Shown: positions 21,188-47,537 of the stretch, in pieces
Layout: the number at the start of each line of letters is the position of its first letter
Position numbering within the stretch: the first letter of the stretch is position 1
The notes under the pieces: model-generated
Database searches by the model: none
What the model saw: the letters and a program-made list of their open reading frames with translations, nothing else
What the model was told of the DNA's origin: nothing
Program-made: the position numbers and the translations under genes
Source of the DNA: an uncultured Bacillales bacterium
GTDB lineage: Bacteria; Bacillota_I; Bacilli_A; RF39; UBA660
Assembly: GCA_948442255.1 (NCBI GenBank)
Contig: CAOJRT010000003.1
Location: 6,315 to 70,314 of the forward strand
DNA: 64,000 bases
Direction: 5' to 3'

Positions 21188-21940
21188 ATGAAAAGAAAAA
21201 TTTTATATAGTCTATATTTTTTAATCATGCTTTTTGGTTTAGGGAGTATCGTTTTTGCTGAGGGGGAATGTACTTTAGAAGCAAGAAGTGATTTACGAGG
21301 ATTGGCTTCTAATATTAATATTGTCTATCAAGAAGTATCGGAGTATGTTAAGAACGAAGATTATGAAGAGGGAGATATTGATGCGGATCCAGAATATCTA
21401 CAAAAATACCTTGTTATCAAAATATATAATTTAAGTCCTCATTTAAGATTAGAAATGACTTATGGGACTCCTAATGATTCTACAAGTATTACCTATAATC
21501 AAGCTGATCAAGATGGAGTTATTACTTTGGTACCAAGTACTAATGAATATGTTATTACTTATACATTTAATGTTTATGGTAGTTCTTCCGCTTGTTATGG
21601 TCAACTTTTAAGAACAATTAAACTAACTTTACCAAAATATAATTATTATTCAGAACGCTCTGTTTGTGATGATATTCCAGATTATTTTATGTGTCAAACA
21701 TATACGACTTATGATATTAATCCGACAAACTTTTTGGATAGTGTGAATGCTTATAAAGAGAAATTAAAAACACAGAAAAATGAAATAGATGAAAATGGGG
21801 ATGTGAAGGATAATACAAGTATTATAAATAAAACGGCATCCGTTATAACGAAATATAAATATGTTATTATCGGAGTTATCTTAGTTATAGGGGTTGTTGT
21901 TACTATTATAATAGTGAAAAAGAAAAGGAGTGTATTATAA
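21188..21940 (+). CDS. exported Cys-containing protein with C-terminal TM anchor, unknown function
   Basis: Signal peptide (..GSIVFAEG). C-terminal VIIGVILVIGVVVTIIIV+KKKRS. TAATG overlap with the giant ORF. Confidence 0.65.
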   Translation: MKRKILYSLYFLIMLFGLGSIVFAEGECTLEARSDLRGLASNINIVYQEVSEYVKNEDYEEGDIDADPEYLQKYLVIKIYNLSPHLRLEMTYGTPNDSTSITYNQADQDGVITLVPSTNEYVITYTFNVYGSSSACYGQLLRTIKLTLPKYNYYSERSVCDDIPDYFMCQTYTTYDINPTNFLDSVNAYKEKLKTQKNEIDENGDVKDNTSIINKTASVITKYKYVIIGVILVIGVVVTIIIVKKKRSVL

Positions 21941-24900
21941 TGAAGAATCTTGATATAAGAAAATATGCAATTTTTACTATTGTATGCTTCTTATCTTTTT
22001 TTGGTTATAGAGTGTATGCAGCTGAAGCAGTAGTTGTTACGCCAGGGAAACCCGCTACATTGATTGGAACAATGAACTATGAAAATGCTGTTTGTTACGT
22101 GAATAATAAGCAAATTACTCCAGAGAGTGAATATAATGATGGAAAATATCGTGTATATTATGATGATAGTAAGACGGATATATTGATACAATCTACTCAA
22201 GCGGGAGTGGGTTCAGATTTGTCTGTTTTTTGTACTTATGACAGACATATGGAAATTGTTAATTCTAACAAGGTAGAAGTTGGTGGCAAAGGAGATGTTA
22301 CTGTTTCTGTTTCATCTTTCTCTTTTGAAGGAGCTTCGAGAATTACTTTAGATATGGATGAGCAATTTAATAGTGAGTATACGATTACTTCGTGGATTAG
22401 TAATATCGGAATAATGGAAAGTGTTTCTATTAATGATGCAAGAATTAATACAAGTGCTTGTGTTGCAGGAACAGATACTTGTAAAATCACATTAAATAGC
22501 CCAGTTACTTCTTCAGGACAAGTAATTGGGGAGATTAAATATCGTGATAAAGATACAGGTGGACAGAATACATTAACCGTTATTATTAATATTAAAGATA
22601 CGTGGTTTTTAAAAGCAGATGGTGGAAATTATGCGAAGACTTGTGATTTTAGTTCTTCTTTATGGGAAAAACGTGATGGTGATTCCAATGTTTGGTATTC
22701 TAAACAAGGAGTGGATATTGCTTTTAATAATGTACATTTTCCTTCTTGTGAAGTAGATACAGATTATAACCCTTTGATAGAATTTAAAGGATGGGTATAT
22801 CAAAAAAGAGATGCTGATTTAGATGCTAATAATGCTGGTCTTGTTAATGGAAACTTCCAAACCGTTGATTATTGTACAACAGTAGCCAGTAAATATCCTA
22901 GTTTATTTGGCTTTGTGAATGCAGGACAAAGTGTTGATCCAAGAGATATTCATTATGGGTATGTATTTGCTTGCTATGCTAGTAGAGGAATCGCCCTTGA
23001 TATGAATGGAGGGACTGCCTCTTTAGATGGTAATGTTTGGAAACTTTATACTTCTAAAGATGGTTTATATAGTGATAAACATGGGTATAATGGTCTTTAT
23101 ACTTATACAGGTGGTGGAAATATAGCACTTCCTAGTAGTGTAAATCCTCCTGCTATCTATGCAAATACGGCTGAATTTGTTGGTTGGAAGAATAAAAAGA
23201 CAGGAGAGGTTGTTCCAGGTGGAACTACGGTTAATGGAAATGATGGGACTATCTATACTGCTACATTTAAACAAAAAGGCACTTCTAATGGGGGCTCTAG
23301 TGGAGAAGCTGAGCTTGGTGGATATGAGATAAAAACAGTTTTTGTTGGAGAAACATCGGAAATTATTTTACAGAATGGTTATACTTGTACTAGTTATGAT
23401 AGTGATAATTTTTCTATAACTAATGGTGGGTCTGTTGCTGGTGAATCAAGATGTAAAATTACTGGCAAAGCAAGTACTAATGGACAATTTATCAATGTAC
23501 CTTTTGTAAATACTAATGGAGCGACTTTTACTTATAAAATAATGGTTTCTACACGAGATGGGCTTGGAGGAAATCTTATTATAGGAAATCCAACCATTAA
23601 TATTCAAATCAATACAGATTCTTTAAATAATTCGAATGGTGGAAGTGGGATAAATGCTTCTGAAGGATATGGATGTCAAAGTTTCCGAGTTACAAAGATA
23701 AGAGGCGATAAATCACAGACTCCGTTGAAGTCTGGTGATTATCAGTTGGATATTATGCATTATGGTTTATCTTGTGCTACAGCTGGATATGCTGAATTGC
23801 AATATGATAGTTTGTGTTTGGATCCAGGACGTACCGCACCTGCGGTTGGTGACTTATATCAATATGAGAGAAGAATTTCTCCGAACTGGAATGACGGCAG
23901 TGATATGGCACAATTTGATAATGCTATTGCCTATCTTATCTTTAAAACAATGAATGTTTCGCCAAAAGAAGATGCAAATGGGAATAATACGCATGCTTAT
24001 AGAAAAGCCCTAACGTCAGCAAATGTTGCAGTACGTATTTTAGAATTTGTATATAATCAAGATAATGGTACAAATGCTACGCAAAAGTTATCCTCGCATT
24101 ACTTGACTTATTTAGCTATCGCAGCTAATTTGAAAGAAAAAGTAAGAACAGGAACTGTAACTTATGATGACTTAGTGAGTGCTACAGGTGGGGTTTCTCC
24201 TTCTTGTGAGGCAGGACGATATTGTTTAAATGAAGTGGCTGGAAATGGACAATTTTCTGTTATTCAAGAAGTTGTGGATTTACTGAACTTTAGACAAGTG
24301 GGTAAAGCGGATATAGTTATTTCTGAGATGAGTCATCCCAAAAATGAAGTCAAAATAGATTCGATTGATGGCTACATAGTTAATTTTTCGGGAAAAATGA
24401 CTTTGCCTAAAGCTTCCCTTGTTGTACCTCAGCAATTGTTTGGCCAGAATTTCTTAGTAACTTTAATCAATAGAGATGCTAATATAAAAAATGCTGCGCT
24501 TACATCTCAGCAATGTATTGAAGTTGATGGACATACGGAGTGCTCTTATAGTGGATATGTTGATACAACACCTACTGGAGGAGTTGTTCCTGGTGGGACA
24601 AATTTTGCTGTAAAAGTGGCATATAAAAGTAATTATTCTTTAGATAATGCGGTTTTATTAAAGATAACGCATTCTACGAAGATTGCACAAAGGTTTATAG
24701 CCTTTAATGAGCATTTGGAAGCATTCTTCTATTTGAATTTGTCCGGAAGTAACAATTGTAATGCATTAATTGCAGCGGCTGGTGATAGTGAAGAGAACGC
24801 ACAAATTGCTGTTAATGCAGGATGTTGTACAGTAGAGCTACAAAAAACAAATCCAATTTTCTATAATAAGTATTGTAGAAAAAATTGTACTTATGATGAG

Positions 24901-27618
24901 ACTTATAATTTGGTTGATGGTTCTAATGACTTTGTTTGTACGAACCAAGATCAAGATTTTAATTCAATTAAAGAAGCAACGACAACTTTAAATCAAGAGA
25001 ATTATGCTTGTATCGTAGATGTTTCTGCGAAAGTAGGAACAAATGCTAGTTTGAATTATCAGCAAGCTTTAACTGCTACAGAGAATATGACTGATTTTAG
25101 AGGAAATATTTTATCTGTTGGTGAGTATAATTCGCAAAATGGAGTGGCTGGAACAGGAAATCCTTATTGTCGTGTTACTTGTAAGGAAGATTGGACATTT
25201 AAAACGCCTGGATTTAGTAACTTTACTGGTGAAAATGCTGTAAAAGCTGGATCTTATTTCACAATTAATCAAAATATGGCTCTTGCTTCTACTAAAACAT
25301 GTGTAACGACTTATATTGATATTGATGGTTATAAACTTAATTTGGCAACTATTTCTAATTCGATAATGAATGCGACGAATGAATATAGAGCTCGTGCACA
25401 AGCTATGAGTAATCGAAATATAACATATGAACCTCATGAGTATTATACAACCTATGTTCGTAGCGGAAGTGAGAAAAATATGGTTACTTGTACAGCTGCA
25501 GATGCAGATAAAGAAGGATGTACTACTTCTACAGGTTATGGAACTTACCAATGTCCTACGGGTCAATGTGAATGCTCTTCAACTGGATGGCAACTTACTA
25601 ATGAGTGTAGTCAGACTCCTTCTACCCAAGTAACTGGTCAATACCAAGACGGTTATAAAGTAACTTATAAAGCACAAAAAGCAACTTGTAATGTTGCTAA
25701 GCTAAGTGTTTTGCCTGGAACTTATTACAATAGATATAATAATTATGTTTATGGCTCTGGTAATTTGAGTTCTAGTTTAGCGCCAATAGGTAGTACTAAT
25801 GAAGTTCTTAGCGGATTTGTAGCAGGAGATAGTGAAAAAACAGTCGTTTGTACTAATGAGAAATGTACGGCACAACTTCCAGATGGTACAGACGCAAATG
25901 GAAATCCTAAATATAAATATGTTGATGATTATATTGATATAAATAATAATCGTATCGCATTGGAGAGTAATGGAAGCTGTCAAACATTTACTACTGAGAC
26001 TGATGCTATCAATGCTTTAACACCAGGATTAACTTATAATGGTGAAAGCTTAACTGGATCAATGCAAAGATTATCTAATGAAGTAAATGCTTGGAATCAA
26101 CAAGCAAAGATTGCTTCTGATAATTTTGGAAAATGTCAAAATTTCTATATTTATAATAATAGAGATGTAGGAACAAATAGTACTGTGTATGGTGGAGCTG
26201 GTGCTTATGTTGTAGTTGGAGGCGGTGATACCAATCTTCAAAATTCTGGTTCTACTGTTAATATTTCTGATCTTTTTGATCCAGTGATTAAATATAAATA
26301 TGATGAAGAAACTTATATGAGTTATGTAGGAGATAATAATACTTATATTTTAGACAAATTTAATGGAGCTAGTACTAATACCTATTATTATAACGTAATT
26401 AATCCATCTACTTATTCTGGACAACAAGTTCCAAGTACATTACATGCAGAACAAAGACCATTATGTTATGTAGAAAATGGATATACTGGAAATTTCGATG
26501 GTGCTAAGATGTATTGTAAAGTTGTTAATTTCCATTATTATGATGCTCATTATATTAAAACTGAGCTTACTCAAGGAGGAACATTTAAGAATAATGTTAC
26601 TTGGTATACAAGACAATATGGTGGAATTATTTACCCAGGAACTGGTGGATCTGATGAAGAAAGACTTCAGAATGCGAAACGAAATTCGGGTAATTTAAAT
26701 GATACGATGGAGTGGACACGCTTAGGACAGAATGATGTGTTCCCAGTACAATTAAATACAAGAAGAAATGTATATCAATATGTATTTACTTTTGAAAATA
26801 TTGGTACTTATATGAGTGGTGATAAGAATCATAATAGTGAACAAGATTTAGGTAGAATTATGGGAAGTAGTACTTCGGTTGCTATGTATAACTTTAATAC
26901 TTGCTTCTATGAAGTTTATGAAGGTATGTGTTTATGTTGTGGTAGAACGATGAGTTCAACGGCTCGAGTAGAAAATGAAACTAATATAGATACTACGCAA
27001 TATGTTCCTAATCGTGGTAATAATTATAGTAACAATACGGCAAATTCTGTTAATTTAAATGCTAATGGAACATTAGGTTTCTATACAAATTCTGTATCAT
27101 TATCTGATTTGGCAGGAGCTTCTAATGGTTTTGCTAGTTCTTCTAACTGGGGAGATAAAAATGAATATTTCTATAATGGAAATATCTATTATACGGATAA
27201 AGGTTCTTCCTTAGTGTCTGCAATTGAGAACAAAGGGGAAACTATATATGGCGATACTCCTGAATACTCTTATACTTTGAATCCTAGTGCATTATCTGCT
27301 ATACGCAATATGGAACATAGTAAAAATTATGCTGTTCAAACAGGAGATTTGACGGCGATGGGTTCTTATAAAATGCAAGGAGGAGATGCCTCTAGTGATG
27401 GGGCTTCTAACGTTTTACTTACTCATTTTAAAAGTAATTTCTTAGATAAGATAAAAGAATATGAAACAGCTGAATATAAAGGTTTATTATTTACAAATAA
27501 ACAGATGGCAGATAAGTGTTATGTTACTAATGCTGCAGATGTTGGAAATTCTAATTATAAAGATTGTCGCTGGATAGATTACATGGATGATGATGGTTAT
27601 CGACTAGTGTTTAAATAG
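21940..27618 (+). CDS. giant secreted Cys-rich protein (1892 aa), putative adhesin/effector
   Basis: Signal peptide ending VYAAEA. No LPXTG and no C-terminal TM. About 46 Cys by my count. One Listeria-Bacteroides (Flg_new)-like repeat around aa 349-444. Confidence 0.8.
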   Translation: MKNLDIRKYAIFTIVCFLSFFGYRVYAAEAVVVTPGKPATLIGTMNYENAVCYVNNKQITPESEYNDGKYRVYYDDSKTDILIQSTQAGVGSDLSVFCTYDRHMEIVNSNKVEVGGKGDVTVSVSSFSFEGASRITLDMDEQFNSEYTITSWISNIGIMESVSINDARINTSACVAGTDTCKITLNSPVTSSGQVIGEIKYRDKDTGGQNTLTVIINIKDTWFLKADGGNYAKTCDFSSSLWEKRDGDSNVWYSKQGVDIAFNNVHFPSCEVDTDYNPLIEFKGWVYQKRDADLDANNAGLVNGNFQTVDYCTTVASKYPSLFGFVNAGQSVDPRDIHYGYVFACYASRGIALDMNGGTASLDGNVWKLYTSKDGLYSDKHGYNGLYTYTGGGNIALPSSVNPPAIYANTAEFVGWKNKKTGEVVPGGTTVNGNDGTIYTATFKQKGTSNGGSSGEAELGGYEIKTVFVGETSEIILQNGYTCTSYDSDNFSITNGGSVAGESRCKITGKASTNGQFINVPFVNTNGATFTYKIMVSTRDGLGGNLIIGNPTINIQINTDSLNNSNGGSGINASEGYGCQSFRVTKIRGDKSQTPLKSGDYQLDIMHYGLSCATAGYAELQYDSLCLDPGRTAPAVGDLYQYERRISPNWNDGSDMAQFDNAIAYLIFKTMNVSPKEDANGNNTHAYRKALTSANVAVRILEFVYNQDNGTNATQKLSSHYLTYLAIAANLKEKVRTGTVTYDDLVSATGGVSPSCEAGRYCLNEVAGNGQFSVIQEVVDLLNFRQVGKADIVISEMSHPKNEVKIDSIDGYIVNFSGKMTLPKASLVVPQQLFGQNFLVTLINRDANIKNAALTSQQCIEVDGHTECSYSGYVDTTPTGGVVPGGTNFAVKVAYKSNYSLDNAVLLKITHSTKIAQRFIAFNEHLEAFFYLNLSGSNNCNALIAAAGDSEENAQIAVNAGCCTVELQKTNPIFYNKYCRKNCTYDETYNLVDGSNDFVCTNQDQDFNSIKEATTTLNQENYACIVDVSAKVGTNASLNYQQALTATENMTDFRGNILSVGEYNSQNGVAGTGNPYCRVTCKEDWTFKTPGFSNFTGENAVKAGSYFTINQNMALASTKTCVTTYIDIDGYKLNLATISNSIMNATNEYRARAQAMSNRNITYEPHEYYTTYVRSGSEKNMVTCTAADADKEGCTTSTGYGTYQCPTGQCECSSTGWQLTNECSQTPSTQVTGQYQDGYKVTYKAQKATCNVAKLSVLPGTYYNRYNNYVYGSGNLSSSLAPIGSTNEVLSGFVAGDSEKTVVCTNEKCTAQLPDGTDANGNPKYKYVDDYIDINNNRIALESNGSCQTFTTETDAINALTPGLTYNGESLTGSMQRLSNEVNAWNQQAKIASDNFGKCQNFYIYNNRDVGTNSTVYGGAGAYVVVGGGDTNLQNSGSTVNISDLFDPVIKYKYDEETYMSYVGDNNTYILDKFNGASTNTYYYNVINPSTYSGQQVPSTLHAEQRPLCYVENGYTGNFDGAKMYCKVVNFHYYDAHYIKTELTQGGTFKNNVTWYTRQYGGIIYPGTGGSDEERLQNAKRNSGNLNDTMEWTRLGQNDVFPVQLNTRRNVYQYVFTFENIGTYMSGDKNHNSEQDLGRIMGSSTSVAMYNFNTCFYEVYEGMCLCCGRTMSSTARVENETNIDTTQYVPNRGNNYSNNTANSVNLNANGTLGFYTNSVSLSDLAGASNGFASSSNWGDKNEYFYNGNIYYTDKGSSLVSAIENKGETIYGDTPEYSYTLNPSALSAIRNMEHSKNYAVQTGDLTAMGSYKMQGGDASSDGASNVLLTHFKSNFLDKIKEYETAEYKGLLFTNKQMADKCYVTNAADVGNSNYKDCRWIDYMDDDGYRLVFK

Positions 27619-27633: not shown

Positions 27634-28095
27634 ATGAAAAGTTCGTATTGGGGTTATTGGCTAATACTACTTGGTGTCTTTATCGTAGGTGTTATGATGT
27701 TATCGCAAAATGCCACAACAACAGATACACAAGATTATTACCAATTAAAAGAAGTAGCAAATGGGGCTATCTATGATTCTATTGATTATTCTTACTATAC
27801 GCAAACGCATCAAGTAAGAATGATTAAAGAGTTGTTTGTTGCTAACTTTGTAAAAAGGTTTGCCAATACTGTGCCTATGACAAATACTTATAAAGTGGAT
27901 TTTTATGATTTATATGAATCTCCTCCTAAGGCTAGCGTGAAAATATCTACTACTTCAGGTACATTTGTTATAGCAGGGGGATCATCAAATCTTGACATTG
28001 TTAATTCCATTGATTTGATTGTAGCGTTTAATAATGGACAACTTGCTTCACCAGAAGGCGGACCAATTTTAAGTGGTTGTCCATATTATGATTAG
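27634..28095 (+). CDS. N-terminally anchored small exported protein, unknown function
   Basis: GGAAGGAGAG RBS. One N-terminal TM helix (WLILLGVFIVGVMML) followed by a ~120-aa soluble domain. Confidence 0.6.
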   Translation: MKSSYWGYWLILLGVFIVGVMMLSQNATTTDTQDYYQLKEVANGAIYDSIDYSYYTQTHQVRMIKELFVANFVKRFANTVPMTNTYKVDFYDLYESPPKASVKISTTSGTFVIAGGSSNLDIVNSIDLIVAFNNGQLASPEGGPILSGCPYYD

Positions 28096-30376: not shown

Positions 30377-30389
30377 GGAAGGTGAAGAT

Positions 30390-39436: not shown

Positions 39437-39974
39437 TAGTCGATATACAGATGATTGGGTTCCAATTAAGAGTATTTTAAATGGAATGATACAATTAGAT
39501 AATGGATATTATGTTTCGGGAGTTAAAATATCACCTAAAAACTTATTTATTTTAGATGAGAGTGAAAGAGAAGTCGTTTTATTTAACTTACAAAATCTTT
39601 ATAATATGATAGATTATGAATATTGGATGGTTGTAGCTGATCGTCCTGTTGATATTAATTTGTATTTATCTGAATTACAATTGATGTATCAAAATTCGAC
39701 TGATGGAGCAATTCGTAAATTGATACTGCAAGATATTAATAAAGCAAATGCCTTTATGGGGGCAGAATATAATGTAGTTGATACAGAGTATTTTATTCTA
39801 TTTAAAGAGAAGAGATTAGAAGTTGTGCAGAAACGAATTCATTCTTTGATTGGTGGTTTTGCTAATGCAACTATGAATGCTTCGCAAGTAACTAATGCCG
39901 ACTTGCGTATGATTTTAGATAACTTCTTAAATGGTGGTATGACTACTATGTTTGGGACGGTGATGGCAGCATGA
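39399..39974 (+). CDS. VirB4-family protein, N-terminal domain as a separate ORF
   Basis: DDWVPIKSILNGMIQLDNGYYVSGVKISPKNLFILDESERE resembles the N-terminus of Gram-positive VirB4 proteins (Tn916 Orf16/ConE type). Ends in an ATGA overlap with the next ORF. Confidence 0.6.
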   Translation: MSQQSQTVQIQNSSRYTDDWVPIKSILNGMIQLDNGYYVSGVKISPKNLFILDESEREVVLFNLQNLYNMIDYEYWMVVADRPVDINLYLSELQLMYQNSTDGAIRKLILQDINKANAFMGAEYNVVDTEYFILFKEKRLEVVQKRIHSLIGGFANATMNASQVTNADLRMILDNFLNGGMTTMFGTVMAA

Positions 39975-41755
39975 ATTTAAAAAATGAAATCGCCCCTAAG
40001 GGATTACAATTTAAACCAACAGAATTTATTATAAGCGGAAAGTATGCGACCATTTTAACTGTGATTAGTTATCCTAAATATATCACGCCTGGATTTTTAG
40101 CGAATATAACGAATATTTCGGGTGTTAAAGTTGTTGCTAAACATATTCCTATCGAATTTTCGACTATTTCGAATATGTTAAATAAAGAGATTGCCGATTT
40201 AAAAATGCGTTATCAAAGTGAAAGAGATCAAACGATTCAAGAAAGAATTAGGCAAGATTATGAATCTTTAGAAAGTTTTATATCCATGCTTGCGGCTACA
40301 CAAGCTCGTATTTATGACTTTCAATTACATATTATGATTACTGCAAGTAATCCTGATGAATTAGAGATGAAAAAAGTACAAGTCCGTAGTTATATTGATG
40401 CTTTAGGAATGCGTGCTATTGCTCTCATGTTTGAACAAGAAAAAGTTCTTAAATCGATTATCCCTATCTTCCCTAAACAAGATATTGAAGATCGTATTGG
40501 TACGCCGATTCCTTCTGTTACTATTTCTGCTATGTATCCTTTTGTTTTTGATAGTATTAAGGACCCAGGAGAATCTGCTTTATTAGGTGTAGATTTTTCA
40601 GGTGGAGTTGTTCTTTTTAACCAGTTTTTATACAAAATAAAGAAAGAACACAATCGTAACAATGCGAATATGGTTATTTTAGGTACTTCAGGAAGTGGTA
40701 AATCAACAGCTGCTAAATTGTTAGTACGTAGCCATATTCGTAATGGATATAAGGTTATTTGTGTTGATCCTGAAGGAGAACTTGAAGAGATGTGCCGTAA
40801 CGTAAATGGTAGTTATCTTGATTTAGGTAAGGGTGGGGAATTTGGAATGATTAACCCTTTGGAGGTTGTTCCTGATGCAGATCAAGAAGAGTTACAACAA
40901 GGGCTTGGTTATACAGTTCTTACTAGAGCATTACAATCTTTAAAAGCCTTCATGAAATATTATTCTCCTAGTGTAGAAGATGACGTTTTAGCGATGTTTA
41001 GTGAAGTTGTTCAAGATACTTATAAACGCTACAAAATTGATTTTGATACCGATTTTTCACAATTAAATAGTGAAGATTTTCCTACGTTTGATGATGTTTA
41101 TGCTACTATAAAGGGACGTTTGTTATCTATGCCAGAGAAAACAAGAGAAAAAGATGTTATGGAGCGACTTGAATTGAAAGTTCGACCTCTTGTTCGTGAA
41201 TTGCGTTATTATTTTACAGGGCATACTACTTTAGACATTGATAGCAATATTATTGTCTTTAATATAAAGGAATTAATGAATAGTGATGATAATATACGAA
41301 ATGCGTTATTCTTTAATATTTTAAAATATGCTTGGGGACTTTCTTTAAATAAAGAAGAGACAACCGTTCTTTGTGTAGATGAAGCACATGTTTTATTATC
41401 TACCCGTAATGAGTTGGGAGCTGAGTTCTTAGCTCAAATGCAAAGACGTGCACGTAAATATAATACTGGTACTATAATTATTACCCAACAACCTACTGAT
41501 TTTGCCGCACCTAATTTAATTATGCATGGGAAAGCAATATTTGATAATGCTTCTTATTACTTAGTTATGGGCTTAAAGAAGCAGGCTGTTGAAGATTTGT
41601 CATTGCTTGTTGATTTAAATGAGAGTGAAATGGATAGTATTAAATATTATAATCAAGGAGAGGCTTTATTTATTTGTGGAAGCCGACGTATGAGAGTTCA
41701 TATTTTATGTACACAAGAAGAGTTAGATTCTTTTGGAGCAGGTGGAGGCTTGTAA
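39971..41755 (+). CDS. VirB4-family T4SS ATPase (C-terminal ATPase part)
   Basis: Walker A GTSGSGKST, Walker B LCVDEAHVLL, and IIITQQPTDF. 594 aa. Confidence 0.85.
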   Translation: MNLKNEIAPKGLQFKPTEFIISGKYATILTVISYPKYITPGFLANITNISGVKVVAKHIPIEFSTISNMLNKEIADLKMRYQSERDQTIQERIRQDYESLESFISMLAATQARIYDFQLHIMITASNPDELEMKKVQVRSYIDALGMRAIALMFEQEKVLKSIIPIFPKQDIEDRIGTPIPSVTISAMYPFVFDSIKDPGESALLGVDFSGGVVLFNQFLYKIKKEHNRNNANMVILGTSGSGKSTAAKLLVRSHIRNGYKVICVDPEGELEEMCRNVNGSYLDLGKGGEFGMINPLEVVPDADQEELQQGLGYTVLTRALQSLKAFMKYYSPSVEDDVLAMFSEVVQDTYKRYKIDFDTDFSQLNSEDFPTFDDVYATIKGRLLSMPEKTREKDVMERLELKVRPLVRELRYYFTGHTTLDIDSNIIVFNIKELMNSDDNIRNALFFNILKYAWGLSLNKEETTVLCVDEAHVLLSTRNELGAEFLAQMQRRARKYNTGTIIITQQPTDFAAPNLIMHGKAIFDNASYYLVMGLKKQAVEDLSLLVDLNESEMDSIKYYNQGEALFICGSRRMRVHILCTQEELDSFGAGGGL

Positions 41756-41822: not shown

Positions 41823-44090
41823 ATGAAATCAATGGATGATAAAATTATTGATTTAGCTAAAAAAAGAGGGCTTTCTATTCCAGCAGGTTTAGAAAAAAGA
41901 GAAATTCTTTATTTTATTGCCGATCAATTGGAGATTGATTTTCAATATAGTGACGAAAGTGCTGAAGAGTTACTTCAAATTTTGATGGAAGAGTATGAAC
42001 CTAATTCTTCTTTCGAACCAAGTGGGGATGAGGAAGTAGAAGCACTTGATGAATCGAACGAAGAACAGGAAGTCAAGCATTCTAGCGATTTTTCTGAAGG
42101 TGATTCTTTTCCTAATCAAAGTGATAATCCTTTATTGGCTTCTTCTGGGGAGGAGGATTCTTCTACAGGCGGAAGTAGTCCTAATAAAAGAAATCAAAAG
42201 GAAGAAAATCCTGCTTCATTTCAAAATGACTTGTCTAATAATTCTCCTTCTAAGAAGGAGATTGATAAAGATTCTTCTTTTGATGGAACTAAAGATAAAC
42301 AAGAAGACTCTAAAAAAGAAGAGCCAGAAAAGAATCCAAATACCCAAGGAGATGCGACTTCTCCTAAAAAAAATTCTTCTCTTAGTGGCGGACAAGGGGG
42401 AGACGGAACATCTTATGCATCTAGTAATTTACAGCATCAAAAAAAGATACAACAAGGAAAAGATGCAGAAGAATCGGGAGATTCTAAAGGAAAAGGGGTT
42501 CCAAAAAAGACCAAAAACGATAAGCAGAAGATTTTTCCTAAAGGAGAAGGTAGTGGTTCTAAAGGTTTAAAAAGATTATTTAATCACAAATTGGGCGGTG
42601 AGAAAGGTTCTTTTCGTCTCGGAGATTTAAAAACAGCATTATTAAAGTTTTTTACAGAGCATAAAATACTTTGTTTTTCTCTTGTTGTTCTTTTGGTTGT
42701 CTTTATTATTATTTTGATTGTGGTAATAGAAGATGCTGCAAATGGCGGTGGAAAAACAGGGACACGCTGTAATTATGAATTAAAGGGTGTAATTGAGTCA
42801 GGGACTGTTTCTTTAAATGATGTACAAGTGGAACTTATCAATTGTGATGGAACGCCTAGTGATTATACGATTTTGGGTACTGTCGATTTTGAAAAATATG
42901 TAATTGGTGTTGCATTGGCTGAGATTGGGAGTAGTTCTCCTGATGAAGCCATTAAAGCACAAATTGTAGCGGCAAGAAATTTTGCATTGACTAGAAATAG
43001 TGGGATGTGTCCTGGAAGCCCTTCTACTTGTTTTTATGGCTATAATGTAAATAGCAATACGATTCGTATGCGCGCTTGTGAAGCAGATCAAGTTTATTGG
43101 GATTATACAAAAGATAATTATAGAGAAGATAGAGGTTCTATATCTTTATATTCTCCAGAAGTGGATGCAAGTAGTGGAGTATTATGGCATTCTGCTTTGT
43201 CTGATGAGCGAATCTCTGAAATTAATACACTTGCTGAAGAAGTACGAGGAGTTGTCTTGTTAGATGATAAAGATTATGTTTTAAAAACACCTTATAATGC
43301 AAGTGTTTCTGTACAATTTCAGAATGATGCTAAAGAAGGTAAAGATTATCAAGAGATTTTATCTCGCCAATATGGCAGTGATAATTTCCACACATCGGTT
43401 TGTTCTTCTTATGGTGTTATTGATTATGGAGATTATGTGCTTGATAGTACAGGGCATCAAATCATAAAACAAGATTTAGCTTCTTTTTTACAATCAAAAG
43501 GGACGTCTTTAGAAGAGTTTAACCAACTAATTGCCGACAATGTAGATAAAGCTGGTTATGGAACAAGAGCAGGAGTTGTCGTAGCTGGTGTTACTTTAGT
43601 AGGAGAACTTGGAAATCAGTATGGAGTGAAACTTCCTTATTTCTGGGGTGGAGGACATGCAGATGGAGTTGCTGATTCTGCCTTAGCAAAGTGGGGAAGT
43701 AATCAATGTAGTACGTATGCTAACAATCAATGGTATAGGCGTTGCGGTCTTGATTGTTCAGGCTTTATTCCTTGGGTGATGCGTACAGGAGGATATAATA
43801 TAAGTAGGGCTTATGGAGCTGGATCTTTTTATAGAAGTTTACCTGGAGCACAAAGAGTTTCATTAAAATCTACTATGGCTGTGTTAGAACCAGGCGATTT
43901 TATTGAAAGTAATTCACATATTACTATGGTAGTAAGTGTTGATGAAGCGAATCGACAATACATCGTTGTTCATGCAAGTGGAAATCAATCAGGTATTTTA
44001 TTTTCACGATTTGCATTTGATGCGTCGAGTTATTGGGGTGTTAAAATGGATGGTTATTATAATAATCCGCAAAATATAAGGAGCCGATAA
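41823..44090 (+). CDS. bitopic cell-wall hydrolase: SpoIID/LytB-like + NlpC/P60 domains (CwlT/VirB1 functional analogue)
   Basis: YVIGVALAEIGSSSPDEAIKAQIVAARNFAL (SpoIID-like). GLDCSGFIPWVM ... SHITMVV ... VVHAS (NlpC/P60 Cys-His). One TM helix around aa 283-305, preceded by a ~280-aa cytoplasmic region. Confidence 0.8.
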   Translation: MKSMDDKIIDLAKKRGLSIPAGLEKREILYFIADQLEIDFQYSDESAEELLQILMEEYEPNSSFEPSGDEEVEALDESNEEQEVKHSSDFSEGDSFPNQSDNPLLASSGEEDSSTGGSSPNKRNQKEENPASFQNDLSNNSPSKKEIDKDSSFDGTKDKQEDSKKEEPEKNPNTQGDATSPKKNSSLSGGQGGDGTSYASSNLQHQKKIQQGKDAEESGDSKGKGVPKKTKNDKQKIFPKGEGSGSKGLKRLFNHKLGGEKGSFRLGDLKTALLKFFTEHKILCFSLVVLLVVFIIILIVVIEDAANGGGKTGTRCNYELKGVIESGTVSLNDVQVELINCDGTPSDYTILGTVDFEKYVIGVALAEIGSSSPDEAIKAQIVAARNFALTRNSGMCPGSPSTCFYGYNVNSNTIRMRACEADQVYWDYTKDNYREDRGSISLYSPEVDASSGVLWHSALSDERISEINTLAEEVRGVVLLDDKDYVLKTPYNASVSVQFQNDAKEGKDYQEILSRQYGSDNFHTSVCSSYGVIDYGDYVLDSTGHQIIKQDLASFLQSKGTSLEEFNQLIADNVDKAGYGTRAGVVVAGVTLVGELGNQYGVKLPYFWGGGHADGVADSALAKWGSNQCSTYANNQWYRRCGLDCSGFIPWVMRTGGYNISRAYGAGSFYRSLPGAQRVSLKSTMAVLEPGDFIESNSHITMVVSVDEANRQYIVVHASGNQSGILFSRFAFDASSYWGVKMDGYYNNPQNIRSR

Positions 44091-44091: not shown

Positions 44092-44841
44092 ATGAAATGT
44101 AAAATAATTTTGTTGGTTGTATTTCTTCTTTTGTTATGTGGGTGTAGTGCAGAGGTGCATTTATCTTTTGATGAGAATGGGATAAAAGAAGAAGTGTCTA
44201 TTACTCGTTTTGCAGATCAAAATATGTCTAAAACGATGGTTTATAATCAATACAGAGAGTTTATTCCTGCTTATCATATGGTAGAAGTTCCCGATCCTCA
44301 GCCTGATATAAAAATAGAAGGGATTAGTTACTATAATCGAACTGTTACTGATTTAGGAAATGGGTATCGTTTCTTATATAGTTATACTTATCCATTACTT
44401 AGCTATAATAGAGCAAGAAGTGTAAAAAATAGTTTTAAATCGCCTTATATAAGCAAAGATGAAGAGGGGATTATTACAATTTCTACAGATAAAGGTGGAA
44501 ATATGTTGTTAACACAATATGAAGATTTAGAACGAGTGAAGGTTACGATTGATACAAATGGATATGAAGTTTTAGAATCGAATGGGGTATTTTCAAATGG
44601 AGTTTATTCTTGGGATTTTTCGCAAACGGATAATACAAATTCTATTTACTTGAGTATAAAGAAAAAAGTAGAGGATTCTTCTTTTAATAAACCTGAAAAT
44701 TTAGATCAAATGCAAGAGGAGAAAAAAGAGGAGGAGAATTTTTTACAATCACATCCTTTTGTAGTTATAGCGATTGGAATTGGGGGCTTTTTTATACTTC
44801 TAATTCTTCTTCTAAAAATGAAAACACATAAATATGAATAA
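44092..44841 (+). CDS. lipoprotein with additional C-terminal TM anchor, unknown function
   Basis: LLLLCGCSAE lipobox and terminal VVIAIGIGGFFILLILLL helix. AAGGAG RBS. Confidence 0.6.
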   Translation: MKCKIILLVVFLLLLCGCSAEVHLSFDENGIKEEVSITRFADQNMSKTMVYNQYREFIPAYHMVEVPDPQPDIKIEGISYYNRTVTDLGNGYRFLYSYTYPLLSYNRARSVKNSFKSPYISKDEEGIITISTDKGGNMLLTQYEDLERVKVTIDTNGYEVLESNGVFSNGVYSWDFSQTDNTNSIYLSIKKKVEDSSFNKPENLDQMQEEKKEEENFLQSHPFVVIAIGIGGFFILLILLLKMKTHKYE

Positions 44842-44912: not shown

Positions 44913-47513
44913 ATGAAATTCCGTATATCTTCACGAGACTTAATCATTTTACTTGCGTTTGCAGCTATTTTGCTTTATTTATGTGCTATTGCTACAACAA
45001 ATATTCATTATTTTAGTTTAAATGGTTCTTTTTATGGGTTAAATCCAATTCCTGGTTTTACGAAGTTTTTGGGAGCTACTTTGCTTCTATTTGCTGTTAT
45101 GTTAGCTATCATTATAACAAGTGTTTCTTCTAAAGTTTTTGAACAAAAAAAAGGTTTTGGACTTGAAATTGGTGAAAAAGAAAATAAAGGGTATTCTAGA
45201 TGGGCGAAAGATAAAGAAATTAAAACTGATTCTGATATAGAGGAAGTAGATCCTTTGCAAGCCGATTCTTCCTATGCAGGTATTCCTTTAGTAAATGATG
45301 GAAAAAAACTATGGGTAGATAATGGTTATTATCATAATCTGGTTATTGGTGCAACTGGTTCAGGAAAATCACAAACTATTGTTGAACCGATGGTAGAACT
45401 ATTAGCTAAAAAAGGCGAAAGTATGATTATTACGGATCCTAAAGGGGAGCTTTATACTGCAGCAGGGGAGTATTTAAAACAAAGAGGATATAACATTATT
45501 GTTTTAAATTTTCGTGATCCACAAAATGGAAATGCATGGAATCCTTTAACGTTACCTCATCAATATTATAAAGATGGTAATGTAGATAAAGCGACTGAGT
45601 TAATAGATGACGTAGCGTTAAATATTTTGTATGATCCAAATAATAAAGGTGAACCCTTTTGGGAAAAATCGTCAGCCGATTATTTCTCTGGTTTAACATT
45701 GGGGCTTTTTGAAGATGCCAAAGAAGATGAAATCAATTTGAACTCGGTTAACTTTATGAGTACAATGGGAGAAGAAAAGTTTGCTGCTAGTGATTATATA
45801 AGAGAATATTTTAAAATGAAGGGTGAATCTTCTAATGCTTATGTATTTGCTTCTAGTACGATTAATGCTCCTGTTGATACCAAGGGCGGTATTTTATCCG
45901 TATTTAGACAAAAAATAAGATTGTTTTCTACTCGTGAGAATTTATCTGAAATGCTTTCTTATAGTGATTTCGATATGCGTGAGATTGGAAGAGAAAAAAC
46001 AGCTGTATTTATTGTCATTCATGATGAAAAAACAACTTATCATAGTTTGGCTACTATATTTATTAAGCAATGTTATGAAACTTTAATTGACATTGCACAA
46101 AAAAATGGTGGAAAATTACCTTTTAGAACGAACTTTATTTTAGATGAGTTCGCTAATATGCCTCCATTAAAAGATGTAACGACGATGGTTACAGCGGCCC
46201 GTTCTCGTGATATGCGATTTACTTTTATTATTCAAAACTTTGCTCAGTTGAAGCAAGTGTATGGAAATGATAATGCGGAAACAATTAAAGGTAACTGTGG
46301 TAATTTAGTATATTTGATTAGTACAGAACTTGCAGCTTTAGAAGAAATTAGTAAAATGTGTGGAGAAGTAAAATCAGATGAAAAAGATAAGACGGCTTCT
46401 ACACCTTTAGTGACAGTTACCGACTTACAAAAATTAAAATTGTTTGAAGCTATTATTATCAGATGGCGTAAACCACCATTTAAAACAAAATATACTCCTA
46501 ATTTTAAAATGGATTGGGGACACGAACATGTTGAAGCAAGTTTTCCATTACGTGATAAAAAGGCAGTTAAATTATTTGACATTAAAAGCTTTGTTAAAGA
46601 GAAGAAAAGACAAAATATGCTTAATTCTTTAGAGAACGGGGGAAGTGATTTGAAAGATCCGTTTGCTCCAAAAGATCCATTTTCTTCGAAAAATCCATTT
46701 GCTCCAAAAGATCCATTTGCTTCTCAAAGTTCATTTGGTGGCACTTCTCCATCTGGGAATTCTGGTTTATTTGGAGGCCTAGGCGGAGGGCTTGATTTAG
46801 ATGCAATGATGAAGGACATTGACCGTAAAATAGCTGAGCTTGATGCAGAAGAAGCAAGACAAAAAGAGGAAATGGAAAGAAAGAAAAAAGAAGCTTTAAC
46901 AGAAAAGGTTCCTTCTTCTATAAAAGAGGTAAATCCAGTTTCCAAAGGTGCTCTTCCATTAGAAAAAGAAGCTGTGCCAGTTCTTCCTGCACTGGATGAT
47001 TTGCCTTTCAAAAAAGAGAAAGAAACGCAAGAAAGAAAAGAACAACTCAATATATATGACACAATTTCAACATCTGTTTCATCTCCTAATTTAACCGATT
47101 TGAAACAAGGAGAAATATCTATGGGTCATGAAAAAGCTAATATTGCTGTTGCTACTAGTAGTCCTGTAGATGATAATGAGTTTGAATTTGAAAATTTACC
47201 AAAAGTAGAGAATGCTTCTATTATTCAACCTAATTATATCAGTGGAACTACAATAAAACCAAATGATACACCAGACTTTAATATATATAATACTGTGCCA
47301 AATTTGATGGATAAAGTTAAAGAAGAAAAAGAGCCTGTTTCTTCTAATGCCATTTCTGTTTCTGATGAGGAAATTGCTCATATTTCTAAAAAATTAGAGA
47401 CTCCTGTAGCGGAAGAAAAAGCCAATGTTAAGATTGACCCTGATAAGGTCGTTATTGACCATAATGTTATATCAGATGATGAATTTTTTGATGATTTCTT
47501 TGGAGATGACTAA
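44913..47513 (+). CDS. VirD4/TraG-family type IV coupling protein with ~300-aa C-terminal extension
   Basis: Two N-terminal TM helices, Walker A GATGSGKSQ, TDPKGELY, Walker B FILDEFANM. Long low-complexity tail ending DDEFFDDFFGDD. Confidence 0.85.
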   Translation: MKFRISSRDLIILLAFAAILLYLCAIATTNIHYFSLNGSFYGLNPIPGFTKFLGATLLLFAVMLAIIITSVSSKVFEQKKGFGLEIGEKENKGYSRWAKDKEIKTDSDIEEVDPLQADSSYAGIPLVNDGKKLWVDNGYYHNLVIGATGSGKSQTIVEPMVELLAKKGESMIITDPKGELYTAAGEYLKQRGYNIIVLNFRDPQNGNAWNPLTLPHQYYKDGNVDKATELIDDVALNILYDPNNKGEPFWEKSSADYFSGLTLGLFEDAKEDEINLNSVNFMSTMGEEKFAASDYIREYFKMKGESSNAYVFASSTINAPVDTKGGILSVFRQKIRLFSTRENLSEMLSYSDFDMREIGREKTAVFIVIHDEKTTYHSLATIFIKQCYETLIDIAQKNGGKLPFRTNFILDEFANMPPLKDVTTMVTAARSRDMRFTFIIQNFAQLKQVYGNDNAETIKGNCGNLVYLISTELAALEEISKMCGEVKSDEKDKTASTPLVTVTDLQKLKLFEAIIIRWRKPPFKTKYTPNFKMDWGHEHVEASFPLRDKKAVKLFDIKSFVKEKKRQNMLNSLENGGSDLKDPFAPKDPFSSKNPFAPKDPFASQSSFGGTSPSGNSGLFGGLGGGLDLDAMMKDIDRKIAELDAEEARQKEEMERKKKEALTEKVPSSIKEVNPVSKGALPLEKEAVPVLPALDDLPFKKEKETQERKEQLNIYDTISTSVSSPNLTDLKQGEISMGHEKANIAVATSSPVDDNEFEFENLPKVENASIIQPNYISGTTIKPNDTPDFNIYNTVPNLMDKVKEEKEPVSSNAISVSDEEIAHISKKLETPVAEEKANVKIDPDKVVIDHNVISDDEFFDDFFGDD
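46653..46742 (+). repeat. five tandem 18-nt repeats encoding K(D/N)PF(A/S)(P/S) hexapeptides
   Basis: AAAGATCCGTTTGCTCCA / AAAGATCCATTTTCTTCG / AAAAATCCATTTGCTCCA / AAAGATCCATTTGCTTCT / CAAAGTTCATTTGGTGGC, in frame within the coupling-protein tail. Confidence 0.85.
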
Positions 47514-47537
47514 TGCATTATGTCATCTTTTTTTTTG
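47504..47537 (+). terminator. rho-independent terminator closing the locus
   Basis: AGATGACTAATG/CATTATGTCATCT near-perfect hairpin overlapping the stop codon, followed by T9. Confidence 0.75.

Follow-up and report, generated by a model that had tools for sequence, protein, structure and literature searches.

The pLS20-type plasmids, of which pLS20 itself is known for efficient mating in liquid, are placed by the literature among the Gram-positive conjugation systems that seem to work without a pilus. A 2021 paper on pLS20 noted a VirB11 homologue, listed genes 36 and 38 to 47 as unknown and reported that no pilus components are encoded, and the Tad-like nature of the genes next to "VirB11" was not recognised (PMC8557374). 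A 2022 language-model study predicted a system of CpaF, PilC and DUF5411 in Clostridia (PMC9523054). Here, we analyze a 26-kb chromosomal locus in a stretch of 64,000 nucleotides from an uncultured Bacillales bacterium (contig CAOJRT010000003.1, positions 6,315 to 70,314; hereafter the window, whose first letter is position 1). The locus, at 21188 to 47513, contains 22 intact co-directional open reading frames (ORFs) on the plus strand, which overlap or are separated by short gaps, and one dead copy of a pilin gene; in it, a Tad-like type IV filament module is followed by a VirB4/VirB6/VirD4 type IV secretion system (T4SS) module. Very probably, it is a domesticated, chromosomally fixed apparatus of the pLS20 type. 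The fuller reading, a contact-dependent transfer machine that is vertically inherited, has no relaxase, consists of two coupled parts and has DNA as its likeliest cargo, is the one we favor, with modest confidence.

A first-pass annotation made from the sequence alone had recognized the co-directional run and its limits, with a count of about 25 ORFs; its inventory did not mention the 1892-aa, 250-aa, DUF5411 and 194-aa VirB4-fragment proteins or the 249-aa lipoprotein.

Gene order shared with plasmid conjugation operons

A tblastn search of plasmids with the ATPase of the filament module matched the "CpaF/VirB11 family" genes of pLS20-family Bacillus, Listeria pLGUG1-type and Enterococcus plasmids. 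The operons of these plasmids start with a thioester/SpaA adhesin, a small protein with an N-terminal transmembrane (TM) segment, the ATPase, two membrane proteins of ~260 aa and a ~120-aa protein with an N-terminal TM segment; they continue with tiny Flp-like proteins (47-50 aa), a two-helix hairpin protein (annotated TrbC/VirB2 in pZB18) and VirD4 (CD1115), and end with VirB6 (pLS20_p028), DUF5592, a ~200-aa protein, VirB4, a VirB8-like protein and a lytic transglycosylase/C40 hydrolase. A MobP2 relaxase comes next in the pLS20-like and pLGUG1 records, and the MOBP relaxase typed by PLSDB in pZB18 lies outside the fetched stretch.

The families of the pilus ATPase, VirB4 and VirD4 were linked to their plasmid equivalents by phmmer, at 1e-39 to 1e-50 (6e-43 for the pilus ATPase and plasmid gene 37, g37). 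Furthermore, an all-against-all hhalign comparison of 16 window families with 14 plasmid families returned the positional equivalent as the best match for seven window families:

DUF5411 protein to g36, E 8e-7
TadC-like protein to g39, E 8e-7
TadB-like protein to g38, E 2e-3 over 211 columns
Pilin-like protein 4 to g40, E 2e-5
Pilin-like protein 5 to g40, E 2e-4
VirB6-like protein to g49, E 2e-7
VirB3-like protein to g50, E 3e-4

Altogether, ten components match their positional equivalents in the order of genes 34 to 54, three by phmmer and seven by hhalign, with VirD4 relocated. The sequence matches indicate that the DUF5411 protein is the equivalent of pLS20 gene 36, the ATPase that of gene 37 ("VirB11") and pilin-like protein 4 that of gene 40. 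Since the order is the same and ten positions correspond, the pairing of a Tad-like module with a T4SS is an inherited trait shared with a known plasmid conjugation system, and not a novelty of this genome. It had been taken for undescribed at first, which the same order in the pLS20-family, pLGUG1 and pZB18 operons contradicts; their "VirB11" ATPase had been noted already (PMC8557374). What is new is the chromosomal setting in uncultured gut Bacilli.

Viewed from the plasmid side, the "unknown" genes around "VirB11" resemble a Tad-like filament module (related loci carry L numbers here: L161 19395-24205, NZ_OX419552; L162 15330-21976, pLGUG1; L163 17011-21736, pZB18). The set comprises the DUF5411-like gene 36, the platform-like genes 38 and 39, the pseudopilin-like gene 40, the Flp-like gene 41 (47-50 aa, duplicated in L161) and the VirB2-like hairpin gene 45. 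For plasmid g45, g46, g47, g51 and g53, no link to window families was found.

The secretion module

The right part of the locus encodes the following proteins.

35597 to 35938, plus strand: VirB2-like two-helix hairpin protein a (Pfam T4SS_pilin PF18895, 5.8e-5, below gathering score; two TM segments, 4 Cys)
36011 to 36436, plus strand: VirB2-like hairpin protein b with signal peptide (Pfam T4SS_pilin, 1.3e-4, below gathering score)
36452 to 39067, plus strand: VirB6-like polytopic channel protein, 871 aa, long C-terminal extension (NCBIfam pLS20_p028, weak, 7.6e-6; ~7 TM segments)
39092 to 39436, plus strand: VirB3/PrgI-like small membrane protein (hhalign to plasmid DUF5592 g50, E 2.8e-4, 87 columns; TM hairpin)
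39390 to 39974, plus strand: free-standing VirB4 N-terminal domain, 194 aa, TrsD-like (NF045975 positions 96-276, 3.4e-13; TrsD 0.02)
39971 to 41755, plus strand: VirB4 ATPase, C-terminal motor part, 594 aa (NF045975 positions 294-890, 1e-104; CD1110 2.6e-48)
41823 to 44090, plus strand: membrane-anchored bifunctional cell-wall hydrolase, SpoIID-type plus NlpC/P60-type (SpoIID 3e-10; TIGR02594 4e-4; DCSGF motif; TM segment 284-302)
44092 to 44841, plus strand: 249-aa lipoprotein with C-terminal TM anchor (lipobox LLLCGC; TM segment 223-241; syntenic)
44913 to 47513, plus strand: VirD4-type coupling protein, 866 aa (T4SS-DNA_transf PF02534 9e-54, TrwB_AAD_bind 7e-24, TraG-D_C 8e-24)

VirB4, VirD4, the VirB6-like and VirB3/PrgI-like proteins and a bifunctional wall hydrolase together make up the set that characterizes the mating-pair formation type FATA (MPF-FATA) of monoderm bacteria. 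VirB4 is split, and its two genes overlap by 4 nt at the virB4 start; the 194-aa and 594-aa products together span positions 96-890 of NF045975, the mycoplasma VirB4 family that scores best (1e-104) among the NCBIfam families. A homologue of the 194-aa fragment shows a weak match to the TraC-like family PF26593, and VirB4 also matches Pfam TraG P-loop/AAA_10 at ~1e-14 and carries the motifs GTSGSGKST and VDEAH. The VirB6-like protein aligns with plasmid g49 at E 1.6e-7 (hhalign probability 93.9). VirD4, with the motifs GATGSGKSQ and ILDEFANM, passes the NCBIfam CD1115 cut-off (305 bits versus 250) and has a long, low-complexity acidic C-terminal tail with KDPFAP repeats, which four 18-nt tandem repeats at 46649-46738 encode. 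Thus, the T4SS module as first annotated stands for VirB4, VirD4, VirB6, VirB3 and the hydrolase (NF045975, CD1115, hhalign and SpoIID), while the VirB2-like matches stay below the gathering score.

The hydrolase, for which a PDB sequence search gave no match, is the VirB1 equivalent. The 249-aa lipoprotein, whose TrsH and TraV matches are confined to the signal peptide, may fill the VirB8 or the lipoprotein slot. VirB2-like protein b shows weak NCBIfam matches to the membrane proteins MMCAP2_0566 and Mbov_0396 of mycoplasma integrative and conjugative elements (ICEs), and a consensus promoter match precedes VirB2-like protein a at 35536-35564.

The filament module

The left part of the locus, the pilin-like genes set apart, encodes the following proteins.

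21188 to 21940, plus strand: 250-aa secreted protein with C-terminal membrane anchor (signal-like N terminus; TM segment at 225-243; 34% median identity, syntenic)
21940 to 27618, plus strand: giant 1892-aa secreted Cys-rich protein (signal peptide, 47 Cys)
27634 to 28095, plus strand: DUF5411 protein with N-terminal TM segment (Pfam DUF5411 1.7e-49; hhalign to plasmid g36, E 8.4e-7, probability 91.5)
28110 to 28910, plus strand: CpaB/RcpC-like protein (TIGR03177 1e-7 and Pfam RcpC PF16976 4.6e-4, both below cut-off)
28937 to 30376, plus strand: hexameric secretion ATPase of the CpaF/TadA-FlaI-VirB11 group, 479 aa (Pfam T2SSE 3.7e-26)
30357 to 31283, plus strand: TadB-like platform protein with GspF-type cytoplasmic domain (AlphaFold2 and Foldseek; hhalign to plasmid g38, E 2e-3, 211 columns)
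31276 to 32073, plus strand: TadC-like second platform protein (hhalign to plasmid g39, E 7.8e-7, probability 91.7; three TM segments)
34459 to 35526, plus strand: 355-aa cytoplasmic two-domain protein (receiver-like N-domain and ParA/MinD-class NTPase domain; degenerate Walker A HAGAT[TS] in the alignment)

The ATPase carries the motifs GETGSGKTE, IEDTLEL, ILLAEVR and GHHIISTIHA; these, like those of VirB4 and VirD4, are present as the first-pass annotation had quoted them. Against PDB, CpaF is its best match (2.8e-15), with FlaI (4e-14) and VirB11 (1e-13) nearly equal, and its NCBIfam matches are all below cut-off, with VirB11 TIGR02788 first in rank. Because the scores are about equal for the three families, the sequence alone cannot separate a pilus motor from the VirB11 of a T4SS. 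We set aside a plain VirB11 in view of what lies downstream, namely two putative platform proteins with a probable GspF-type fold and, after them, pilin-like genes.

The TadB-like AlphaFold2 model (predicted local distance difference test [pLDDT] 84, predicted template-modeling [TM-] score [pTM] 0.71) has as its top Foldseek matches the cytoplasmic domains of EpsF/OutF, the platform proteins of type II secretion systems (probability 0.96/0.85/0.82, target TM-score 0.67-0.73, E ~2). Neither the TadB/TadC-like window proteins nor ten remote homologues that an exhaustive HMMER search had brought up matched Pfam T2SSF, and PDB profile searches gave no match for the TadB-like, TadC-like and 355-aa families. 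A paralogy of the TadB-like and TadC-like proteins was not supported by profile-profile comparison (E ~0.05 only). The true starts of the two genes are probably the ATG codons at 30390 and 31285, respectively.

The CpaB-like protein is 30% identical (9e-38, 236 residues) to a protein in the same gene position of the distant relative L167 that has a solid RcpC Pfam match, so that the RcpC/CpaB component of a Tad pilus is recognizable through this relative; the SAF domain with which it had first been credited was not detected. For the 355-aa protein, the AlphaFold2 model is of low confidence in the N-domain and reaches pLDDT ~85 in the C-domain, which Foldseek placed among SIMIBI NTPases (HypB, UreG, ParA, FleN and MinD, E 1e-5 to 1e-3); none of the top 50 matches is a TadZ structure. 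Pfam, NCBIfam and PDB gave no sequence match for it, and tblastn against plasmids was also empty. It is TadZ-like in design and at most a candidate member of that family.

The giant protein takes up over a fifth of the locus, is its fastest-evolving gene (29% median identity) and occupies the slot of the TED/SpaA adhesin in the plasmid operons. Pfam, NCBIfam and PDB returned no match for it, nor did the Pfam/NCBIfam scans for the 250-aa protein. We consider the giant protein a putative adhesin for a target surface.

Between the TadC-like gene and the gene of the 355-aa protein lie the pilin-like genes.

32194 to 32496, plus strand: major-type pilin-like protein 1 (leader MKEATGELN, one TM helix, 4 Cys)
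~32534 to 32605, plus strand: pilin 3 copy, truncated and dead, within the tandem duplication of 614 nt (direct repeats D1, D3, D4 and D7; read directly)
32808 to 33089, plus strand: major-type pilin-like protein 2, a paralogue of pilin-like protein 1 (shares 160 nt, at 93% identity, with the beginning of the pilin 1 gene)
33109 to 33342, plus strand: major-type pilin-like protein 3, 77 aa, 4 Cys (leader and TM pattern)
33353 to 33880, plus strand: minor-type (TadE/pseudopilin-like) protein 4 (hhalign to plasmid g40, E 1.6e-5; leader M(K/R)E(A/S)IGG)
33895 to 34446, plus strand: minor-type pilin-like protein 5 (hhalign to plasmid g40, E 1.6e-4)

All five short proteins have a polar leader of 9-10 residues followed by one hydrophobic helix. 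The three small pilins have the leader MKEATGELN, and pilins 4 and 5, which are larger and TadE-like, have M(K/R)E(A/S)IGG. The tandem duplication of 614 nt (32190-33131) produced pilin genes 1 and 2 and left the truncated pilin 3 copy between them. The leaders are nearly invariant across species and the remainder of each protein diverges, which suggests a processing or recognition site. The core TGEL, directly followed by an N-x-(S/T) triplet in most major-type pilins, recurs in a 52-aa Flp-like protein of the distant relative L168 (11820-11978, VKDYTGELV...). In its architecture, the filament half corresponds to a Tad-kind type IV filament machine, without two of the traits that define Tad systems: the pilin motif and, as far as the locus and the scanned window ORFs go, the peptidase.

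Synteny in related chromosomes

Relatives of the ATPase occur in 225 species-representative genomes, on contigs up to 1 Mb, all of them metagenome-assembled genomes (MAGs) of uncultured gut "Bacilli", "Tenericutes" or "Firmicutes", and relatives of VirB4 on at least 549 metagenome contigs. The named ATPase bearers include Candidatus Coprovivens, which NCBI files under Bacilli incertae sedis, CAG:582 and "Mycoplasma sp. CAG:956"; we take their GTDB order to be RF39, presumably an order of small-genome, auxotrophic bacteria. The guts of humans and animals commonly harbor RF39-like Bacilli, of which essentially none is in culture. Among the papers searched, none ascribes a secretion system or a pilus to RF39 itself.

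Gene order was compared by tblastn of all window proteins against 160 fetched loci, which extend 10 kb to each side of the match. In many species, it runs from metallophosphoesterase, CAAX protease and thioredoxin, all three on the minus strand, through the 250-aa protein, the giant protein, DUF5411, CpaB, the ATPase and TadB to TadC; then, after an insert of 0 to 6 kb, from the pilins and the 355-aa protein through VirB2a/b, VirB6, VirB3, the 194-aa protein, VirB4, the hydrolase and the 249-aa protein to VirD4, after which rhodanese, VTT, RmuC and BacA (minus strand) follow in many species. The same left neighbors (metallophosphoesterase, CAAX protease and thioredoxin) and right neighbors border the locus in dozens of species, in agreement with the chromosomal setting between core genes proposed at first. 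The right flank (rhodanese, VTT/DedA, RmuC and BacA) is retained down to 72% VirB4 identity, which argues for vertical inheritance at a fixed chromosomal site and not for an ICE.

The junction between TadC and the pilins is a variable slot (L009 13866-19312; L001 13259-16324; L018 13185-18788) that holds YfhO-like, membrane glycosyltransferase-like and FAD-oxidoreductase-like genes or, alternatively, a gene for a second giant protein (~1870 aa, 54 Cys); such content may point to modification of the surface or of the pilins and to diversifying adhesins. In split loci, the break falls between TadC and the first pilin, and the pilins and the 355-aa protein remain with the T4SS (L128, L132); the module boundary is therefore to be placed there, and not between the TadZ-like and VirB2-like genes as first annotated. 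Ahead of the split-off block of pilins and T4SS come genes for two Cys-rich secreted proteins and for a third VirB2-like hairpin protein (L128 616-2836; L132 1102-3321).

Distant chromosomal relatives of the Tad-like module occur with or without visible T4SS genes (L167, L168). In L167 (8717-12774), beside ribosomal-protein and ECF-transporter genes, a PedC/thioredoxin-like gene on the minus strand is followed by RcpC, TadB-like and TadC-like genes and a homologue of the 355-aa protein, with no ATPase gene between RcpC and the TadB-like gene.

Absence of mobility genes

No Pfam match to relaxase, integrase, replication or partition families was obtained in the locus or in the other scanned window ORFs, among which no recombinase was found either; the first-pass statement that DNA-processing and mobility genes are missing is confirmed to this extent. 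No MobP2-like relaxase was found in the window and 2.64 Mb of related loci (~160 relatives, within 10 kb of the locus), no direct or att-like repeats bracket 21.1-47.6 kb, and PLSDB holds no near-identical plasmid DNA. The direct repeats or att sites that had been named as a possible refutation are thus absent around the locus.

These data bear on whether the locus could be an ordinary ICE, an integrated plasmid or a decaying remnant of one, with relaxase and integrase beyond the examined stretch. In favor of this, every characterized homologue resides on a plasmid or ICE that also has a relaxase, the analysis covers 64 kb of this genome, and internal deletions occur in two relatives. The same core genes on both sides in dozens of species, the lack of att-like repeats and of a compositional break (G+C content 0.30-0.36 in the locus versus 0.26-0.33 in the flanks), the intactness of all 22 genes, motors conserved like a core gene or more, and the absence of a MobP2-like relaxase near the locus in the relatives stand against it. 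We consider this explanation extremely improbable and, given the conserved synteny and the absence of flanking repeats and of a recombinase, reject an ordinary ICE. Domestication, which had been proposed as a possibility, is likely in view of the synteny and the lack of mobility genes.

Median identities to the window proteins, within shared sets of loci, are high for the motors and cytoplasmic parts (VirB4 85%, pilus ATPase 78%, 194-aa protein 71%, TadB 68%, 355-aa protein 65%, TadC 62% and VirD4 62%) and low for the exposed parts (giant protein 29%, 250-aa protein 34%, 249-aa protein 35%, VirB6 40% and minor pilins ~40%); the neighboring genes give 79% for RmuC, 52% for thioredoxin, 42% for both BacA and VTT, 36% for metallophosphoesterase and 31% for the CAAX protease. 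Motors as conserved as a core gene, combined with fast-changing surfaces, are what would be expected of an actively used contact-making machine, and not of a decaying element.

Chromosomal surroundings of the locus

The features at the edges of the locus are the following.

19931 to 20605, minus strand: CPBP/CAAX-type intramembrane protease (Pfam Rce1-like 2.9e-13; syntenic with the system)
20621 to 21076, minus strand: membrane-anchored thioredoxin-like protein with CTHC motif (Pfam Thioredoxin 1.2e-6; TM segment at residues 5-23)
47503 to 47537, plus strand: terminator-like hairpin (7-bp stem, 11-nt loop, then T9; overlaps the virD4 stop codon; sequence read directly)

The thioredoxin gene, transcribed divergently at the left edge, is syntenic in 21 relatives, and a 35%-identical PedC-like gene lies divergently upstream of the module in L167. 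Its product probably handles the disulfides of the Cys-rich exported parts, which are the giant protein, the pilins and the VirB2-like proteins. The CPBP protease and the metallophosphoesterase lie upstream of the CpaB-ATPase module in 34 of the 47 relatives with enough sequence, and a role of the former as pilin-leader peptidase would be speculative. Because the thioredoxin and CAAX-protease genes accompany the system in relatives, its true left edge is probably 19931 or 19008; the divergent thioredoxin gene first taken as the left limit is indeed there, as a part of what travels with the system. On the right, the hairpin and the T9 run are real, the 7-bp stem and 11-nt loop not making the strong terminator initially described. 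A CPBP/CAAX-type protease also adjoins the system in the Enterococcus plasmid pZB18 (L163 11641-12087), as it does in RF39-like chromosomes (window 19931-20605), and the direct similarity between the two proteins is weak (blastp 5e-3).

The window is AT-rich (G+C content ~0.26-0.36). Ordinary chromosomal genes make up the left and far-left flank (YfhO, MurJ-like flippase, TyrRS, glutamate racemase and FtsW) and the right flank (rhodanese, DedA/VTT, RmuC, BacA, TrpRS and PBP5-type carboxypeptidase). An Rfam scan gave no riboswitch or other RNA element within the locus and no T-box leader at gathering score anywhere in the window, despite the TyrRS (10876-12117) and TrpRS (50658-51662) genes. 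Promoter-like sites are not enriched (82 observed versus 88 expected from shuffles), and therefore no operon claims are drawn from them.

Some further observations concern the neighboring genes. The small rhodanese-domain gene after the terminator (47564-47811), which follows VirD4 also in the relatives with listed ORFs (L061, L104 and L143), most likely starts at the ATG at 47564 and not at 47425 as in the mechanical ORF list. Two spore-associated families, a CotZ-like protein (17552-17986, 16 Cys in 144 aa, 6.5e-13) and YunB (57338-58015, 5.9e-15), stand out in a lineage often labeled "Tenericutes", and the window contains a full cell-wall gene set (FtsW, MurJ-like, PBP5 and BacA). A probable surface protein of 654 aa with three cadherin-like beta-sandwich domains (8735-10699, 1.8e-24) is encoded ~10 kb upstream of the locus.

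Proposed mechanism and evidence against it

We infer the following course of events. The first part would be a Tad-like filament machine made of the CpaB-like protein, the CpaF/VirB11-group ATPase, two GspF-fold platform proteins, five pilins and the TadZ-like NTPase, with the giant Cys-rich adhesin, DUF5411, the membrane thioredoxin and the CPBP protease as accessories; the second would be a T4SS translocon made of two VirB2-like proteins, VirB6, VirB3, the split VirB4, the hydrolase, the lipoprotein and VirD4. The Tad-like machine would build a short filament of MKEATG-leader pilins, whose disulfides the thioredoxin would form or check; a removal of their leaders by the syntenic CPBP protease is speculative. 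Together with the giant adhesin, the filament would find and bind a neighboring cell, the hydrolase would open the wall, and VirD4 would hand cytoplasmic cargo to a conduit formed by VirB6, VirB3, VirB4 and possibly the VirB2-like proteins, with VirB4 as the power source. The outcome could be an exchange of chromosomal DNA between cells, the nicking being done by an enzyme encoded elsewhere or an unconventional route being followed, as in mycoplasma chromosomal transfer. The retention of VirD4 in 33 of 35 relatives argues for the recruitment of cytoplasmic cargo; since, in addition, all characterized homologues move DNA, export or exchange of DNA would be the most likely function. As an assignment by analogy, DNA as cargo is tentative and falls a little short of an even chance. 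The closest precedents for transfer without a relaxase are mycoplasma chromosomal transfer and the relaxase-less pXO16 system (PMC9673590).

Several findings weigh against this reading. Of the 36 ATPase-centered loci that extend 8 kb or more beyond TadC, pilins and T4SS follow in 19 and not in the other 17; among the 40 VirB4-centered loci with 10 kb upstream, TadC is present in 11, the pilin/355-aa block without TadC in reach in 8, and neither TadC nor the 355-aa gene in 21. The two modules are thus apart in about half of the relatives with enough sequence, and not always co-inherited at the site, as the first-pass annotation had asked to be checked; any physical or functional coupling between them is therefore putative. 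Two relatives pass from TadC or the 355-aa gene straight to hydrolase, lipoprotein and VirD4, without VirB2-like, VirB6, VirB3 and VirB4 genes (L061, 3107-9842; L079, 7290-13887). This is either a natural loss of the core, by which the machine would be dispensable in some lineages, or a MAG misassembly. No relaxase, oriT or other DNA-processing gene was found in the locus and the other scanned ORFs of the 64-kb window, nor a MobP2-like relaxase in the surroundings of the related loci, so that DNA is proposed as cargo by analogy. The pilin leaders lack the Flp G/XXXXEY motif, with no EY at +5/+6 in the five locus pilins and their relatives, and an A24 prepilin peptidase (TadV/CpaA) was not found in the locus or the scanned window ORFs, where the CPBP protease is syntenic instead; the Tad-type module proposed at first thus holds as Tad-like, with a T2SSE ATPase, a probable platform fold and an RcpC relative, and not in these two features. 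Finally, several assignments are weak (VirB2-like and CpaB-like Pfam matches below gathering scores, GspF fold at Foldseek E ~2), and hhalign gave no plasmid partner for the 355-aa, VirB2-like, 194-aa, 249-aa and 250-aa families, nor for the CpaB-like family.

The separation of the modules could mean that two independent machines merely adjoin each other, a Firmicutes-wide, DUF5411-type Tad-like adhesion pilus and a T4SS, with no functional coupling. Such a pilus would agree with the CpaF, PilC and DUF5411 system predicted in Clostridia (PMC9523054), with ATPase-TadB-TadC sets without an adjoining T4SS in many relatives (L023, L047, L053) and also in the distant L168, and with T4SS loci without an adjoining Tad module (L104, L143). 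We regard this as quite unlikely: in three unrelated plasmid families, the modules are paired in the same order within one conjugation operon; upon splitting, the pilins and the 355-aa protein go with the T4SS and not with their presumed assembly ATPase; and the modules still adjoin each other in lineages whose VirB4 identity is down to 72% (L156, L160).

The missing relaxase also bears on a machine for DNA import similar to ComB or Ced, in which the pilus would capture DNA from cells or the environment and no relaxase would be needed. Tad/Flp pili and T4SS relatives each serve DNA uptake elsewhere, the latter in the archaeal Ced system (PMC9905601). The close homologues are all export-type conjugation systems, no ComEC/ComEA-type genes lie in the locus, and a conserved VirD4 coupling protein is present. 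We know of no such protein in the import systems ComB and Ced, and consider import very unlikely.

Comparison with described systems

Like the Tad/Flp (type IVc) pili, the locus has an RcpC/CpaB-like protein, several small pilin-like proteins and minor ones resembling TadE; an ATPase that may belong to the CpaF/TadA group, two single-domain platform proteins with a probable GspF fold and a ParA/MinD-class protein that may correspond to TadZ would be further common parts. It differs from them in the pilin leader, which is MKEA(T/I)G instead of G/XXXXEY, in having no A24 (TadV) peptidase in the locus, in platform proteins that Pfam T2SSF misses and in an ATPase that scores about equally for CpaF, FlaI and VirB11. 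A cooperation of a type IV filament with VirB4/VirD4 ATPases in cell-to-cell DNA transfer is described for IncI R64/TP114 and PAPI-1 (PMC12857230, PMC9045228); these are, unlike the window locus, Gram-negative mobile elements with type IVb pili, relaxases and separate gene clusters.

The ICEs of mycoplasmas use a DDE transposase and are mobile, and we know of no Tad-like module in them. Their VirB4 model (NF045975, the Mbov_0397 ICE VirB4) is the best family for the window VirB4, and a neighboring ICE membrane-protein family gives the weak VirB2-like match; the model is a single profile of 894 positions, whereas the window VirB4 is split. Mycoplasma chromosomal transfer provides a precedent for the exchange of chromosomal DNA through such a pore (PMC12857230).

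The T4SS of Patescibacteria (candidate phyla radiation) is, like the window locus, derived from MPF-FATA, fixed in the chromosome of an uncultured lineage and mostly without a relaxase (PMC12102498; PMC10633639), and both have VirB2-like PF18895 proteins, a TrsD-like fragment and a PrgI/VirB3-like protein. The locus is thus of the Patescibacteria type in being chromosomal, lineage-wide, relaxase-less as far as the locus and its surroundings go, and provided with PF18895 proteins, here below gathering score. The host is a member of the Bacilli and hence of another phylum, VirD4 is tightly linked here, whereas the patescibacterial coupling protein usually lies away from virB4, and the type IV filament genes are in the same operon here, whereas the type IV pilus genes of Patescibacteria are separate systems of another type.

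This likeness makes a lifestyle organelle the main rival of the preferred reading, and nothing in our data separates the two. The pilus and giant adhesin would dock on a partner cell, bacterial or host, and the T4SS would move macromolecules that the bacterium needs, by extraction or exchange of proteins, nucleic acids or nutrients on which a reduced-genome lineage depends. The chromosomal, relaxase-less and lineage-wide occurrence (PMC12102498, PMC12857230), the PF18895 proteins and TrsD-like VirB4 fragment common to both, motors conserved as much as core genes or more, the fast-evolving giant adhesin and the extra adhesin genes of some relatives are consistent with it. So would be the small genomes and auxotrophy that we presume for RF39. 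VirD4, tightly linked in 33 of 35 relatives, differs from the patescibacterial coupling protein, which is usually not near virB4 and not essential (PMC12102498); the VirB4 core missing in two relatives (L061, L079) speaks against universal essentiality; and there is no sign of epibiont life, the window encoding a normal cell-wall and division set and spore-associated proteins. We therefore rate the organelle as unlikely, and equally so the bolder proposal that a second reduced-genome lineage turned a conjugation machine, its built-in Tad-like pilus kept, into a core organelle for life on or with other cells, with the corollary that pLS20-type conjugation uses an unrecognized Tad-like pilus.

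The domesticated transfer machine that we prefer would extend the domestication of conjugation machinery beyond Patescibacteria and the archaeal Ced system to a Bacillota lineage, and gives a concrete lead to RF39 biology, since a 26-kb envelope machine among the most conserved features of the region points to DNA exchange or partner dependence and might help in designing co-cultures. In pLS20, genes 36-41, to which the literature assigns no function, resemble a Tad-like filament module beside the "VirB11" ATPase, counter to the current view of pilus-free Gram-positive conjugation, and this can be tested in a tractable system. With pLS20-family, pLGUG1/pLM80-type and pZB18-type plasmids, the locus shares the gene order from adhesin to wall hydrolase, a free VirB4 N-domain included, and a CD1115-family VirD4, which stands at the operon end here and before VirB6 in the plasmids. 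The MobP2/MOBL-type relaxase, replicon, Rap/Phr/Rco regulators and surface-exclusion gene of the pLS20 family are not seen in the window locus, which is chromosomal and syntenic across species, whereas the pLS20-type systems are on plasmids; conversely, it has an extra CpaB/RcpC-like protein, Cys-rich pilins with a linked thioredoxin, and an 1892-aa Cys-rich protein where the plasmids carry a thioester or SpaA adhesin.

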